Virus record (IMG/VR): IMGVR_UViG_3300021514_000002
Span: 32,001 to 96,000 of that record
Strand: one strand, 5' to 3'
From: a virus
Lineage: Duplodnaviria > Caudoviricetes
DNA length: 64,000 bases
In this document: one piece after another, positions 3,761-32,984 of the stretch
How the letters are laid out: each line of letters begins with the position of its first letter
How positions within the stretch are numbered: position 1 is the first letter of the stretch
The notes under the pieces: generated by a model
What the model was told of the DNA's origin: nothing
Databases searched by the model: none
The model's input: only the letters and a program-made list of their open reading frames with translations
Translations under genes and position numbers: made by a program

Positions 3761-4899
3761 TCTATTTCCACTTTTTCATCTTTAAGACCTAATGATTTCC
3801 AACGCTTTTTCATAACGTCTTTATAAGAAAAATCGTTGCCAATATACTTCTGCATAACTAAACCAAATTGTAATTTGTCTAGTTCTTTCTGTCCAAGAAT
3901 CGCATAATCTTTACGTTCAAGATCTTTATTACGTTCGTAAAAACGTTCAACAGTATCTACTAAATGATTATACTTAACTTCAACAAAAGTTTCCATTTCG
4001 CTAATTAATTTAATAGCAAGCGGATCATCGTGAAATAAAGAACGCATATCATCAGTAGCTTCTTCCAATACAGCTTCATACAACCGTCGTGGACAGTTGA
4101 TTGAGTCTTTTGTGTGGTGCAAAGCTAAGTACCAAGTACATTTCTTTTTCACACGCTGACCAGATGGAAGTTCAAACACAACACCTTCAACGCCCTGCAT
4201 ATCATCAATAGAATTAATGTATGCTTCTGGATCGTCAACAGTGATGATTTTAACCCAACGGTTTAATATTTCTGGAAAGTGTTCAGCATCAATATCATAG
4301 AAGCTAATGTATTCACCTGTTTTACGGTTACGCACAGCCAATACTTTCAAATGTGCTTCCATGTAAGGCAACACAATTCGGTTGTCTGGTGCACACCATT
4401 CCATGATAACAGTACAATCCAACTTTTCAGCGTGAAGCAATTCGTTTCGGAATGTATTGTTTTCATCAAGGCGTAAGTATGCATTGGCGTTTATCGCCTG
4501 ATCAGAAGTCAAAGAACCCTTTGTCTTAACTTGAAGAACACTATCGTGTAGGTATGTACTGATCATAGAACAATCAGCCTTGTCTGCAATTTCTTTAATC
4601 GTAGACAAGTCCAAGTCCATAGTATATGGATTTTCATATAAATTAAAGAATTTCTGGGGCGGTAAAGAAGCCAGACGAACAGCCATCGGATCAAGTGGAT
4701 CGACCATTTCAAACATAATACCACGACATTCCAAAGCGCTTGGTTGCAGAAACTCAGTATAAGAGGCCAAGCGATAGTTGAAGATACGATACCAAGTATC
4801 GTTAGTTTCATCTAAATCGTGGTCACTGAAAAAGAACGCTTCACTGAAAGCAACAAGGCGCATTAAGTCTTCGTATATTTTTGTTTGATATGTGTTCAC
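3757..4899 (-). CDS. rnlA: T4 Rnl1-like RNA ligase (tRNA repair)
   Basis: FNYRLASY, ECRGIMFE, KFFNL.EN, K.D.S.I, KTKGS, EG.V, KC.WY..LHHTKDS motifs of T4 RnlA; GTG start. Motif I reads KADCS instead of KEDGS. Confidence 0.85.
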   Translation of the reverse strand: MNTYQTKIYEDLMRLVAFSEAFFFSDHDLDETNDTWYRIFNYRLASYTEFLQPSALECRGIMFEMVDPLDPMAVRLASLPPQKFFNLYENPYTMDLDLSTIKEIADKADCSMISTYLHDSVLQVKTKGSLTSDQAINANAYLRLDENNTFRNELLHAEKLDCTVIMEWCAPDNRIVLPYMEAHLKVLAVRNRKTGEYISFYDIDAEHFPEILNRWVKIITVDDPEAYINSIDDMQGVEGVVFELPSGQRVKKKCTWYLALHHTKDSINCPRRLYEAVLEEATDDMRSLFHDDPLAIKLISEMETFVEVKYNHLVDTVERFYERNKDLERKDYAILGQKELDKLQFGLVMQKYIGNDFSYKDVMKKRWKSLGLKDEKVEIE

Positions 4900-24590: not shown

Positions 24591-25094
24591 CTAAGCACAA
24601 TATCCCGTACGTAATGCATTGTAGTCATTAATATTCTTTGCTAAGCTGACAGCAAGTTTCTTCATTTCTGCTAATGAATCGACAACAAATACATTAGGAT
24701 GTTTCACGCCAAGCAACTTACTTTTGACCAGTTTGCGTGTTCTTACACTCGTTTTTCTTTCATCTTCGGTTTTTCTATCATCGGTACAATCATCGTCAAT
24801 CATAATGATTAGATGTTGATTACTACCATTCGCGATATTGCGAAGAATATTTAGAATTGAGAATCCGATTTCGCCAAGTGAGCCAAGACCCAAGCTGTCT
24901 TTTAAGACAGGAAACAAAATAATATCATCTTCCATAAGATGTCGATTTTCATCATCAATCATTCCAGGGTGCCAGTTATCGCCAGCATCAGGATTGAAAA
25001 ATTCAATGTCGTTATTATTGAACGCAGAAATAAAACTGTTGCGCCATGTAATATTGTCACATGTTCCGAATAGTCCTATACATAAATTCTTCAT
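24591..25094 (-). CDS. NDT2/TIR-like fold protein
   Basis: IGLFGTC...WR...FFNP...W...E...GSLGEIG. Confidence 0.55.
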   Translation of the reverse strand: MKNLCIGLFGTCDNITWRNSFISAFNNNDIEFFNPDAGDNWHPGMIDDENRHLMEDDIILFPVLKDSLGLGSLGEIGFSILNILRNIANGSNQHLIIMIDDDCTDDRKTEDERKTSVRTRKLVKSKLLGVKHPNVFVVDSLAEMKKLAVSLAKNINDYNALRTGYCA

Positions 25095-25489
25095 AATAAT
25101 TGTAAATCCCCTGTGATTTTGTCAACTTCTTCTTTTAGTGCAGGACCAACCGCAACCGCAGTATATGTAGGAACCCCACCAAACTCAGTTAAGCCTGCGT
25201 CTTTTATCAAACTGCACACTAAACCTGCATCTATTGCTTGCCTGTAGATGCAGATAAGCTCTTCTTCACTATCTACTCTAACGCAAATTTTAGTGAAAAG
25301 CCCTGCTAACCACGAATCCATTTCGGGCGTCATTGGTATAATATAACAAGGCAATCCAATTTCGTCGCGTTGAATATAACCATTATCTAATATAGCTTTC
25401 ATTGACGCATGGCAGCCTTGTGAAATTTCCTTCCCGCGACGCATCTTTAAATCTTTACGAATTACTATAACTTGTTTAGTATCCATCAT
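25091..25489 (-). CDS. pth2: peptidyl-tRNA hydrolase 2
   Basis: [14 protein letters not shown]...Q..HA, KI..., DAGLTE, T..A.GP. Confidence 0.9.
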
Positions 25490-25810: not shown

Positions 25811-26626
25811 TTAACCCTTTTTAATACAATTGTCAATATCTATTAATTGACTTAATAAATCTTCCATCATTGTCAATGGTAACATATTTGGGCCATCACT
25901 TAAAGCTTTTTCTGGATTAGGGTGTGTTTCTATGAATAATCCAGATATTCCAACTGCAACTGCCGCTCTTGCTAAAGTAGGAACGAATTCACTTTGTCCG
26001 CCAGATGTCGTACCATTACCACCGGGCATTTGAACAGAATGTGTAGCATCAAATACGACAGGACAATGTGTTTGTTCATGCATTATAACAAGTGACCGCA
26101 TATCAGAAACAAGAGTATTGTAACCAAAAGACGTGCCGCGTTCACAAACCATAAGTTGTTCGTTGCCTGTCTTTTCCGCTTTGACCACAACATTTACCAT
26201 ATCTGCTGGTGCCATAAATTGTGCTTTTTTAATATTAACCGGCTTGCCAGCGGCTGCAACCCTTTGAATGAAGTTTGTTTGTCTACATAAAAAAGCTGGT
26301 GTTTGTAATACATCAACAACATCTGCAACTTCATCTATTGGTGTGTCTTCATGTACATCGGTTAATACGGGTATGCCTAATTCGTCTTTTACCTTTTGTA
26401 AGATACGCAACCCTTCTTCTATTCCAGGCCCACGATAACTAACAATGGAAGTACGATTCGCTTTATCAAAAGAAGATTTGAAGATAAAAGGAATTCCTAA
26501 TCTATCCGTAACCTTCTTTAAATATTCGGCTGATTCTAAAACAATCTTTTCACTTTCAATAACACATGGACCAGCAATCAAAAAAAGCGGGCGATTAAGT
26601 CCTACTTCAAAGTTACATAATTTCAT
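25811..26626 (-). CDS. kdsA: KDO-8-phosphate synthase
   Basis: [46 protein letters not shown]. Confidence 0.95.
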
Positions 26627-26915
26627 GGTTTTTTCCCTCATGTAAAAATTTTATCAATGCACTTCTGGCTGCAGCAACGAGATATCCAAACACATTATCG
26701 TTTTTCGTTGGATCGAATGTTCGGTAACTTATCATTATTTGCATTATCGCTTGCTGTTTCATGTCTTCATTGTATGTAAGCCTTTTAAAGTGGGGAGGAT
26801 TTATTAATCGTTCCGCAATACAAACAAACATCCCTGCCAGTGCTTCCGTAATTCTTCCATTTTGTTTAGATTTTTCAATTTCAACAAGAAGATCGGCATT
26901 TATAACTTTAGTCAT
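26613..26915 (-). CDS. short gp55-like sigma-factor fragment/paralog
   Basis: IAERL...P.F...Y.EDM...FDP.K..N.F.Y resembles region 2 of T4-type late sigma. Confidence 0.5.
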
Positions 26916-28097: not shown

Positions 28098-28781
28098 TTA
28101 TTCCCATAATCTATCCATGTTACCACGAAAAACCTGCTTTAGGTTGGTCTTCTGACCAGTCATATGATCAATGATTATATCTTCCTGAAAACGATAAGTT
28201 CTAATCTTATCCCCGCGCATTCCCGAACCTACCATATCATGTCTTTCGGTATTTTGGTTGGCGTGCCGCTCGCCAAATATCAAAGAATCCAACATTTTAT
28301 CTACAGCTGCACGTGCTTCTATCTTATTCTTACTCTGACTTCGGCTATCCCGTTCTTGTTTGATTCCTGTAGGTAGATGAATGCATTTTATAGCAGATAA
28401 CGTCTTATTTTTCTTTTGGCCACCACAGCCCGTGGACTTAAATAGTTCAAAGAAATAATGATGATCTTCCCGTAAGGAATATTTGGAATGTGCAGAATAT
28501 TCGTCATCAAGCACAGCTACTGTAACAGTAGACGTATGAACTCTGCCTTTTCGTTCAGTCGGAGGCACTCGTTGGATACGATGCCCACCTGCTTCATTTT
28601 TTAATTTGTTTAGATTTTTTCCGATAACTTCAAGGGATATGAAACCATCGCGCTCAGATAAGCGGCTAGACTTTCAGCCTAGTTTAGAAAAGGTTTTTTC
28701 GTAAGCAACACAAAGATTGTTCACGAATAATTTTGAGTCTTGGCCACCTTCAGCGGCACGTATTTCTATAATTTTTTTCAT
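28098..28781 (-). CDS. RF1-like class I peptide release factor lacking domain 1, with in-frame TGA at codon 36
   Basis: EIRAAEGG, E.GGHRIQRVPPTE (PxT), HTST.TVAV, GCGGQ, RTY; TGA at 28676-28674, same frame on both sides. Confidence 0.85.
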
Positions 28782-29041
28782 TTTATTTTTCCTTTTTGTA
28801 CTTATCGACTAGATGTTTAATAGCTAAGTAAGATGTTAGATCTATTTCTAATATCTTACTTATTTTAGGGTTTCTTTCTGTTTTTAATAACTCTTTAAAT
28901 AATTTAATCTTTTGATTAATTTCAAAAATAGTTACACTTCACCAGAAGTTATACCGCAACTAGAACCACCTAACTCCAGTACAATATTGCCTGTTTTTAT
29001 TTCTATATGTTTCATTCCATTTCTCCTTATTCTAGTATTTA

Positions 29042-29786: not shown

Positions 29787-30071
29787 TTAATCAATTACCG
29801 CAACAATATCTTCTTCGCGCATAACCAACAGCTCTTCACCGTCAACTTTGATTTCTGTGCCCGCGAACTTGCCAAACATGACTTTGTCGCCAACCTTCAC
29901 ATCTAAAGCACGAACGCCGTTATCTGTAATCTGGCCATTACCCACAGCAATAATTTCACCTTGTGCTGGTTTTTCAGTTGCTGAATCTGGAATGACGATG
30001 CCACCCGCTGATGTTGTTTCTTCTTCCATACGACGAACGACCACACGGTCATGTAAAGGACGGATCTTCAT
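29787..30071 (-). CDS. groES: co-chaperonin GroES
   Basis: [10 protein letters not shown]...[12 protein letters not shown]...VKVGDKV. Confidence 0.97.
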
Positions 30072-30132: not shown

Positions 30133-30411
30133 TTAATCTTCTTTTATAATTGGTCCTAAAGTAACACCAGTAGGACAATCGTCTTCTTTAGAATCTCGAA
30201 AATCCTTATAACTGTTTCCACAGAAGGAACAACGGTCATATAGTTCTATGCCACTACAATTACCACCATAATATTTTTGCTGTTTGTCTTCTGATAAAGT
30301 ATTAAAATAATCATTAAAACGTTTAACTTCTGCTTCGGCATGTTCTCTCGTCACACCAAAGTGAACCCAACCACATTTATTACATGTACGTTCGTTATAA
30401 TCAATTTCCAT
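30133..30411 (-). CDS. zinc-binding hypothetical protein
   Basis: CNKCGWVH...CSFCG...GVTLGPII. Confidence 0.6.
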   Translation of the reverse strand: MEIDYNERTCNKCGWVHFGVTREHAEAEVKRFNDYFNTLSEDKQQKYYGGNCSGIELYDRCSFCGNSYKDFRDSKEDDCPTGVTLGPIIKED

Positions 30412-31313
30412 TATATTTGAATCCCATGTTCACTAGTTCTGCTGTAATTTTCCAAGTCTTCCAACGCGGCGACAATTTTCTGACAATCGGCAGCGTAAAA
30501 ACCAGCAGAATTGATATTATTAATTTCAATAACTTTCATTCCAAGTGCAGTAACAGCAACATCCATAACAAACGCGTCTGCTGGAACACGCGTATCAGGA
30601 ATAATTTTACAATCTACCTTAGATTGCCATTCACCTATCATACGTTCACAGAACGCGTATACTTGTGGTTCAACATATTCATCTGATATTACTTGACTAC
30701 CACGTTTATATAAGCTTCCTGTTATAATGTTACCATCAACAATAAACATTCTGTATTCTGTTATAATATTTTTTGCACTAGAAATCATTATTTCTGTGTT
30801 TTTATGCAACAGGAGAAATTCATCAATCTCTTCAATTTTACTAATATCTTTTAACCATTCGTGTAATGCATCAATACTCATCACTTCACCCGAAAACGAT
30901 TTGTTATCATGAACAGGTCTTACAAATACATAATCATATGGTGGTATAGTTATATTTTTAATCAACCCAACACTTGCATCGCCATTTAAAATATTGTCTT
31001 TACCAAATCCATCACGCCATTTAGAAAAATCAAAATTTTCATTTAAATACGTACCCGGTGTCCATCCACGGGCTTTGGCTATACGTGTTAACGTTGTCGC
31101 ACCCATGACCATAATTTTCTGGTTAGTATCAATGAAAGGTTCTTCGACATCATCCACTTCTTGTGTCATGGAATCAAAGTCTGCTGGAACAAATTGATTA
31201 GTGAAAGGAATTGGTTTTATAACCAAATAATCAACTTGAAGTCGTTCTAAAGCTTCAATGAATCTAACGTAACCTGCTTCGTTGTATAAATCATTTTGTA
31301 CTACCCAAAACAT
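30411..31313 (-). CDS. ATP-grasp domain protein (DUF4343-like)
   Basis: FVRP..D.KSFSG, EYRMFIVDG, DVA...KVIEIN..N.AGFY. Confidence 0.75.
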   Translation of the reverse strand: MFWVVQNDLYNEAGYVRFIEALERLQVDYLVIKPIPFTNQFVPADFDSMTQEVDDVEEPFIDTNQKIMVMGATTLTRIAKARGWTPGTYLNENFDFSKWRDGFGKDNILNGDASVGLIKNITIPPYDYVFVRPVHDNKSFSGEVMSIDALHEWLKDISKIEEIDEFLLLHKNTEIMISSAKNIITEYRMFIVDGNIITGSLYKRGSQVISDEYVEPQVYAFCERMIGEWQSKVDCKIIPDTRVPADAFVMDVAVTALGMKVIEINNINSAGFYAADCQKIVAALEDLENYSRTSEHGIQI

Positions 31314-32780: not shown

Positions 32781-32855
32781 TGGAGCTTAGGATGGGGTTT
32801 GAACCCACGTTTCGACAATACCAATGTCGTGTTCTGCCAATTGAACTACCTAAGC
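32781..32855 (-). tRNA. tRNA-Thr(GGT)
   Basis: CGACA-TTGGTAT-TGTCG, CCA. Confidence 0.9.
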
Positions 32856-32860
32856 AATAA

Positions 32861-32984
32861 GTGTCATTTCGTTGGCATCGAACCAATCTTCTCCCACTGC
32901 GGAATTACGTTACCATATTCAAGGAGGAATCGAACCCCAACAACCCTCGGGCGGGTGTTTTACCCGTTAAACTACAAACAACAC
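32861..32984 (-). pseudogene. degenerate/chimeric tRNA-like element with two T-arms
   Basis: D-arm GTTT-AACGGGTA-AAAC, T-arms GGGG-TTCGATT-CCTC and TTGG-TTCGATG-CCAA, no CCA. Confidence 0.45.

Follow-up and report, generated by a model that had tools for sequence, protein, structure and literature searches.

An in-frame UGA at a conserved tryptophan codon as a putative readthrough gate in a short RF1-type release-factor gene of large phages

The textbook case of recoding-gated autoregulation of a release factor is the bacterial prfB gene, which encodes RF2. This class-I release-factor gene carries an early in-frame UGA, located at codon 26 in E. coli, and the completion of the protein needs the failure of termination there and a +1 shift made with the aid of an SD-like element and the sequence CUU UGA C, by which RF2 is autoregulated. 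Note that RF2 is the sole factor that reads UGA, with UAA being common to the RF1-type and RF2-type factors. Moreover, UGA is a stop codon that can be misread by tRNA-Trp(CCA): in E. coli this tRNA reads it as Trp at low frequency, with a following A favouring the leakiness and a following T, according to the E. coli data, giving the strongest UGA terminator context. In phage Q-beta, where the A1 protein is a known product of constitutive leaky UGA readthrough, the reading of the coat-gene UGA by tRNA-Trp lengthens a fixed proportion of the protein at its C terminus. Another relevant protein is PrfH (RF-H, paired with RtcB), a homologue of the class-I release factors that has no domain 1, keeps the GGQ and is not known to have a stop-codon-reading tripeptide. 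The natural suppression of UGA by tRNA-Trp in E. coli was reportedly treated by Engelberg-Kulka in 1981, and the Hirsh suppressor is a further instance of such decoding. Among viruses, one example of a gated release factor is known, the class-I release factor R726/mg280 of Mimivirus and Megavirus, the gene of which requires both UGA readthrough and a +1 frameshift, with insertion by tRNA-Trp having been proposed (Jeudy et al. 2012, PMC3521657). Recoded phages have also been described as carrying class-I release factors together with tRNA genes, with RF1 in the TGA-recoded Jade phages and RF2 in the TAG-recoded Lak and Agate phages, the genes there being in the standard code and having no internal stop (Borges et al., 10.1101/2021.08.26.457843).

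The gene considered here lies in a window of 64,000 nucleotides (the whole stretch of DNA that was analysed), which comprises bases 32001-96000 of a 363,531-bp (364-kb) IMG/VR phage record (GC 36%), the source of the phage being hydrothermal-vent metagenomes according to the sequencing-run labels. As had been claimed in the original prediction, a frame on the minus strand runs unbroken from an ATG to a TAA except for a single TGA at codon 36 (Table 1), our translation matching the earlier one, and with the TGA read as Trp the product has 227 aa. It is likewise confirmed that an open-reading-frame listing under table 11 catches only the distal 156 aa of this frame, from a GTG start. The frame across the gate is GGC TGA AAG, with no shift.

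Of the known systems, prfB and R726 of Mimivirus come closest to the present gene. As in prfB, an early in-frame UGA interrupts a class-I release-factor gene, and the completion of the protein needs failed termination. By contrast with prfB, the frame is continuous and neither an SD-like stimulator nor a CUU is present, that is, no prfB-type +1 frameshift site is found in the window gene. Like R726/mg280, the gene is virus-encoded and depends on UGA readthrough, and within the family to which it belongs the +1 frameshift also occurs as a gate. Unlike R726/mg280, which is eRF1-like, belongs to eukaryotic viruses and has both events in one gene, the phage gene is of the bacterial RF1 type, has one gate per gene and has that gate exactly on the conserved Trp, with the UGA-C context and the Hirsh-like viral tRNA-Trp of the Mimivirus case not being seen in the present phage. 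Whereas the Q-beta readthrough extends a protein, the readthrough here would be needed for any functional protein and would restore the native residue. The Jade, Lak and Agate factors, which are also phage-encoded and accompanied by tRNA genes, serve a genome-wide code change, whereas the present genome is not recoded. PrfH resembles the phage protein in lacking domain 1 and keeping the GGQ, but the phage protein keeps a codon-reading tripeptide, PPT; its match to the PrfH model TIGR03072 is 48.2 bits against a cut-off of 166.65 and covers only residues 105-198, i.e. the GGQ domain, and no RtcB is found among the genes neighbouring the release factor. No published account of a UGA-gated phage RF1 was found in the literature searched, a body of literature that is short of most subscription journals.

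Table 1. Coordinates in the window of the features of the release-factor gene and of its neighbours
Feature	Position	Strand	Remark
Short RF1-type release-factor gene	28098..28781	(-)	227 codons + TAA, internal TGA included
Shine-Dalgarno-like AAGGA	28790..28794	(-)	8 nt 5' of ATG; read from the sequence
ATG start	28781-28779	(-)	opens the release-factor frame
Codons 1-35, 5' of the gate	28677..28781	(-)	domain 2 first strand and helix alpha-5, GGxDS helix tip included
In-frame TGA, codon 36 (gate)	28674..28676	(-)	at the conserved RF1 Trp; next base A
Codons 37-227, 3' of the gate	28101..28673	(-)	remainder of domain 2, then domains 3 and 4
PPT (PxT-type codon-recognition tripeptide), residues 73-75	28557..28565	(-)	inside GGHRIQRVPPTE
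Catalytic GGQ, residues 120-122	28416..28424	(-)	invariant across all relatives
TAA end	28100-28098	(-)	closes the release-factor frame
PTH2 peptidyl-tRNA hydrolase	25091-25489	(-)	neighbour gene
DAHP/KDO8P-synthase family enzyme	25811-26641	(-)	neighbour gene
GroES (Cpn10)	29787-30071	(-)	neighbour gene
R2K-clade ATP-grasp protein	30411-31313	(-)	neighbour gene

The gene product is an RF1-type factor that consists of domains 2-4, with domain 1 absent. The read-through product matches the C-terminal part of PCRF (PF03462, E 3e-21) and RF-1 (PF00472, E 1e-16) in Pfam, and the NCBIfam models rank prfA above prfB and prfB above prfH. Since the prfA match is confined to model positions 107-334 (185.6 bits, below the equivalog cut-off of 400), domain 1 is missing, and the four-domain architecture of RF1 is thus not present, the part lacking being the N-terminal domain on the RF3/L11 side. 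With HMMER the product is found against solved RF1 chains in the PDB at E about 1e-35, and in these alignments W36 pairs with the RF1 Trp (...EARRW in E. coli, ...NQGW in S. mutans), as had been claimed for the TGA, and Q70, PPT 73-75, H82-T83 and GGQ 120-122 are kept. The claim that PPT and GGQ are intact while domain 1 is missing is therefore borne out by the motif positions and by the coverage of the prfA model. The GGQ, the PxT-type tripeptide and the Gln and His-Thr readers of the third base are near-invariant in 78 relatives; note that a second 'GGQ', at residues 12-14, is merely the RF1 GGDEA helix tip and not the catalytic motif. We take Q70, PPT and H82-T83 to match those RF1 residues by which a G is kept out of the second codon position and either A or G is tolerated in the third. 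An AlphaFold (AF2) model of the read-through product, made with 42 relatives in the alignment, has a mean pLDDT of 87 and superimposes on ribosome-bound RF1 with a TM of 0.88-0.91, RF1 being ranked above RF2, and the product has thus both the PCRF and RF-1 homology and the fold of the prfA type. In the model, residues 1-35 make up the opening strand of domain 2 together with its long helix, and a protein without them would be predicted to miss part of the codon-reading domain.

We then consider whether the TGA is a feature of the gene or a defect. A scan of IMG/VR with peptide patterns located 3' of the gate gave 331 relatives, the best 80 of which were kept and, together with earlier loci, make up the 93 scored loci that have codon 36 within the alignment and are 44-85% identical to the query. 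TGA stands at codon 36, as the sole internal stop, in 93/93 of these viral loci. The corresponding scan of genome contigs gave only cellular prfA genes, and in this control set of 79 cellular RF1 genes the equivalent codon is TGG in 58, Tyr in 15, Phe in 4 and Leu in 2, with stops in 0, the difference (93/93 versus 0/79) giving a Fisher p of about 5e-51 for sequences that are not phylogenetically independent. The original prediction had named a TGG in reads or close homologues as evidence against it. No TGG was seen: the close homologues L013-L016 carry TGA, the DNA of two of the nearest relatives reads AAC TGA AA at the gate codon amid many substitutions, a contig of depth 23 from the probable source run has no variant at the TGA (contigs being compared), and an identical 151-nt contig spanning codon 36 occurs in a second vent metagenome from a separate study. 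In GenBank phages, megablast of the locus gave no match and tblastn gave only relatives at <=40% identity, Lak-type huge phages being among them.

In the protein databases the family is misrepresented, either by split calls of 35 aa plus 187, 180 or 156 aa, the truncated entries (P0007, P0010, P0013 etc.) having 187, 180, 156 or 142 aa, or by silent table-4 translations. The nearest database proteins (77-88% identity) are truncated calls of 187, 180 and 156 aa, and on the contigs of the nearest relatives a 35-aa ORF ends 12 nt upstream of the truncated call in the same frame. The 'full-length' proteins with W36 (P0002, P0040 and similar ones) arise only with TGA = W, the caller having used table 4 on short contigs.

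A sequencing error, a recent nonsense mutation, a pseudogene or the insertion of selenocysteine might still be considered, as pseudogenes are commonly recognised by one in-frame stop of this kind and UGA also codes for selenocysteine. Against these stand the TGA in 93/93 loci and the strong purifying selection described below, the depth-23 contig and the independent run without a variant, and, for selenocysteine, the fact that there is neither a SECIS-like conserved structure nor a tRNA-Sec and that the homologous residue is Trp. This reading, to which we give scarcely any credence, is refuted as far as sequence data allow.

Selection acts on both sides of the gate. Over 19 phylogenetically independent pairs, dN/dS is about 0.10-0.11 for codons 1-35 and about 0.15 for codons 37-227. 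E6, A10, E11, G12, G13, D15, F19, L23 and Y27 are invariant among 42 relatives; on the other side, PPT is present in 76/78 distinct relatives, with QRV..PPTE and GRVHTST being near-invariant. Both halves are shown by these substitution patterns to encode protein under constraint. A dip in synonymous diversity at codons 34-45 was rejected as a gate-specific signal, equal dips being present at codons 166-177 and 199-207.

With these data we can assess the possibility that the locus is a split gene, the products of which are a peptide of 35 aa and a C-terminal protein with an initiation of its own. Gene callers do annotate two ORFs, and some relatives have a TTG or an ATG at codon 41. In the window gene, however, codon 41 is TTA and the first in-frame start is the GTG at codon 72, which lies within domain 2; across the 78 distinct relatives no conserved restart codon follows the TGA, the distance to the next start ranging from 4 to 148 codons; codons 37-71, which a restart would leave out, are under in-frame purifying selection; and residues 1-35 belong, according to the model, to the domain-2 fold. 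We thus regard the split gene as very improbable. A conserved in-frame stop, constraint on its two sides and no alternative start, which together are taken to mark readthrough, are all found here, and the TGA is, by the comparison of sequences, a conserved, selected, built-in expression gate and not a defect. Rare relatives have no gate (L097 and L098 with Ala36, L200 and L201 with Cys36), which means that the gate can be dispensed with.

The gate is not part of a wider change in the code. As had been claimed, TGA is not reassigned, the genetic code of the phage being standard: ORF coverage is high throughout under table 11, the putative genes that end in TGA number 24/107 for the window and 104/508 for the whole genome (TAA 358, TAG 46), and a codon-usage screen for in-frame stops that have coding flanks, no nearby restart and no overlapping ORF finds the release-factor gene as the sole credible case of an in-frame TGA in 363 kb. 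The genome-wide signs of TGA reassignment (table 4 or 25) are not present, and in the flanks of 74 relatives the gain in coverage from taking TGA as sense is no greater than that from taking TAG as sense. Whole-genome tests for TAG or TGA recoding showed none, despite two tRNA(CUA) genes.

ARAGORN finds 44 tRNAs in the genome, including one tRNA(CCA) and the two tRNA(CUA). The tRNA(CCA) (L180 186-269, genome 5682-5768, minus strand) has 87 nt and a long variable arm that is unusual for tRNA-Trp; it is a candidate for a phage-supplied reader of UGG or UGA. A Hirsh-type A24 was looked for in this tRNA and rejected, position 24 of the D-stem being G in the ARAGORN fold. The two tRNA(CUA), of the amber-suppressor type, are at genome 252271-252344 and 252952-253023 (Rfam tRNA 59 and 68 bits) and would oppose an RF1-type factor. 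A full-length GOLLD RNA is also present (RF02032, 199 bits with a gathering score of 150; L181 531-989, genome about 252630-253088, minus strand), in which the tRNA(CUA) at 252952-253023 is nested. The phage in addition encodes a permuted two-piece tmRNA (L179 427-690, genome about 233926-234189, minus strand; RF04321 106 bits, alpha_tmRNA 63 bits), the tag of which is AANDAFFEETRLAA according to ARAGORN, and which may hint at an alphaproteobacterial host. The tRNA(CCA), the two tRNA(CUA), the GOLLD RNA and the tmRNA all lie outside the window.

The neighbourhood of the gene is translation-flavoured, with a tRNA-Ala 740 nt downstream and a total of 14 tRNA genes across the window. The order R2K, release factor, cupin, PTH2 recurs among close relatives. 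When run with its intron option, ARAGORN also gives a predicted tRNA-Arg(CCG), interrupted by an intron of 46 nt, at window 32861-32982 (-), which directly adjoins a tRNA-Thr(GGT) at 32781-32855. A scan for promoters and terminators gave nothing exceeding the shuffled expectation.

It might be argued that the gate is opened by a temporal switch of the code, where either an opal-suppressor tRNA or the inactivation of RF2 by the phage comes into play at a set stage of infection and the release factor is a late gene in a transient TGA = Trp code. Recoded phages are known to pair RF1 with suppressor tRNA modules (10.1101/2021.08.26.457843), and the genes of the present family are often located within tRNA arrays. 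Moreover, the relative L025 (336-kb) has a candidate 72-nt tRNA(UCA), at 4807-4878 (-), only 1.6 kb from the gated gene; the acceptor stem of this tRNA, however, has an A-A mismatch, and the tRNA is on the opposite strand to the gene. In the present genome a tRNA-Trp(UCA), for which the original prediction left room, is not found by ARAGORN even with relaxed and intron settings. If such a switch occurred, about 20% of the phage's own genes, which end in TGA, would be read through, and the release-factor gene is alone, over 363 kb, in having a credible in-frame TGA. We thus consider the temporal code switch quite unlikely for this phage.

The wider family is informative about the purpose of the gate. 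With the rare ungated member P0028 as the query, sister clades of about 40% identity were found. In seven sister loci an in-frame stop (TGA in six, TAG in one) stands at codon 45-50, where the residue is aromatic both in the window protein and in RF1. In eleven other sister loci a prfB-like signal is present, GGAGG-N-CTT TGA in nine and CTT TAG in two, and the protein continues in the +1 frame; this SD-CTT-stop signal is located in the sister clades L187, L192-L199, L202, L203 and L206, plus L008. The comparison with prfB that had been drawn in the original prediction is thus apt, true SD-CTT-TGA +1 frameshifts being used at the same place. A tree based exclusively on alignment columns 3' of the gates sets the phage family apart from cellular RF1 (SH-aLRT 100) and divides it into a UGA36 clade (99) and a clade with the frameshift or the stop at codon 46. 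Inside the UGA36 clade, the gate is lost in L097, as noted above, and in its place the nested L008 (376-1075) has TAT CTT TAG C, which resembles the +1 site of prfB but has UAG as the stop; the Trp, two codons further on, is encoded there by a normal TGG. Considering all the gates seen here, the stop is TGA in 108, TAG in 4 and TAA in 0. That the family keeps some recoding gate at codons 34-50 and yet changes its type points to regulation rather than accident. The location of one gate type on the Trp codon and of a second on an aromatic position is what would be expected if tRNA-Trp supplies the residue.

We now look at the sequence around the gate. Among 78 distinct relatives, the TGA is followed by A 60 times, by C 10 times and by G 8 times, with T being found in none of them (0/78). 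The context of UGA followed by A, on which the original prediction relied, is therefore true here and in most relatives, but it is not a fixed requirement. At the genuine TGA stops of the whole genome, A is the commonest next base (45/104) and T follows in 28/104. The absence of T after the gate fits the avoidance of the strongest UGA terminator context, an interpretation with which the amino-acid constraint on codon 37 is confounded. The codon before the TGA is GGY in 76/78 distinct genes. No conserved RNA structure was detected at the gate, RNAalifold giving 0 conserved pairs in 31 sequences; a local hairpin around the window UGA (z = -2.2) was not counted, as it is partly kept in the nearest relatives and absent from the others. 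With no conserved stimulatory RNA and with TGA-A being common at real stops, the basal readthrough may be very low.

It is noted that these data could also be read in terms of a fixed attenuator, in which the UGA would serve only to keep the level of an RF3-independent and perhaps harmful factor constantly low, at about 0.1-3% of initiations, with nothing being sensed, as the constitutive leakiness of the Q-beta stop would illustrate. That no stimulatory structure is conserved and that the context after the UGA varies are in accord with this reading. By contrast, a weak ribosome-binding site or a weak promoter could do the same; three recoding devices, including SD-stimulated prfB-type frameshifts, occupy one place and switch between clades; and every gate uses a stop codon read by a single factor, none being TAA. 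From these considerations a fixed attenuator is unlikely, though it deserves to be kept in mind.

Based on the above results, we propose a model in which the competition between near-cognate tRNA-Trp readthrough and RF2 sets the output of a functional RF1-type factor without domain 1, which probably reads UAA and UAG. The model is, on balance, probable in our judgement, though not by a wide measure; its components, namely the Trp readthrough, the sensing of RF2, the feedback loop and the codon specificity of the factor, are what we infer from the data above. In the model, the full factor would be made only if the ribosome passes the UGA at codon 36. The likeliest decoder would be tRNA-Trp(CCA), either of the host or encoded by the phage, whose near-cognate pairing with UGA would restore the native Trp. 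With RF2 plentiful, little phage factor would be made, and with RF2 scarce or busy, more would be made, so that the output of the factor would be inverse to the capacity for UGA termination. As UAA ends 70% of the phage genes, the new factor would take over UAA load, by which RF2 would be freed and the gate would close. The loop would thus be an indirect negative feedback, that is, a cross-regulation via RF2. Note that, with the RF1-type recognition residues, the phage factor should not read its own UGA, unlike RF2 at the prfB site, so any feedback has to pass via RF2, and such an indirect loop is harder to justify than the autoregulation of prfB.

This difficulty would not arise if the short factor also read UGA, so that its synthesis would be cut off at codon 36 by the factor itself, just as prfB is controlled by RF2. 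Such direct autoregulation is the simplest logic for a gate within a release-factor gene, and the sister clades use the prfB signal itself. Moreover, the helix-tip Glu of RF1 and RF2 is Asp in the phage family and PPN, PET or PQN replaces PPT in some sister-clade members, from which it may be argued that the specificity has drifted. In the window protein, however, PPT, Q70 and H82-T83 match the RF1 recognition residues, the model and the HMM scores are nearer to RF1 than to RF2, and the few TAG gates fit an RF1-type reader. Direct autoregulation is, in view of these residues and scores, decidedly improbable, and the indirect loop via RF2 is the reading that we retain.

What is new in the present case is an RF1-type factor of a bacterial virus that appears to depend on simple readthrough of a UGA in the place of a Trp codon, this gate having been retained throughout a deep family, most of whose members are very large phages, with relatives that swap UGA36 for other recoding gates at the same spot. 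The gene thus offers a testable system for the monitoring of termination capacity by a phage, for a release factor without domain 1 and for the regulatory use of UGA-to-Trp readthrough. Going further, we suggest, tentatively and as a proposal that we hold to be somewhat less probable than its contrary, that large phages may run a termination homeostat, in which a gated RF1-type factor without domain 1 would sense and correct a shortage of release factors during infection. In such a homeostat the gate, whether it is UGA or UAG readthrough or a +1 frameshift, would measure the termination at stops that are read by a single factor, the gene would usually be located among tRNA genes, and some lineages may couple the gate to the deliberate loss of RF2 or to suppressor tRNAs. 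If this is true, the homeostat would be a family-wide, convergently maintained translational sensor of a kind undescribed for bacterial viruses.
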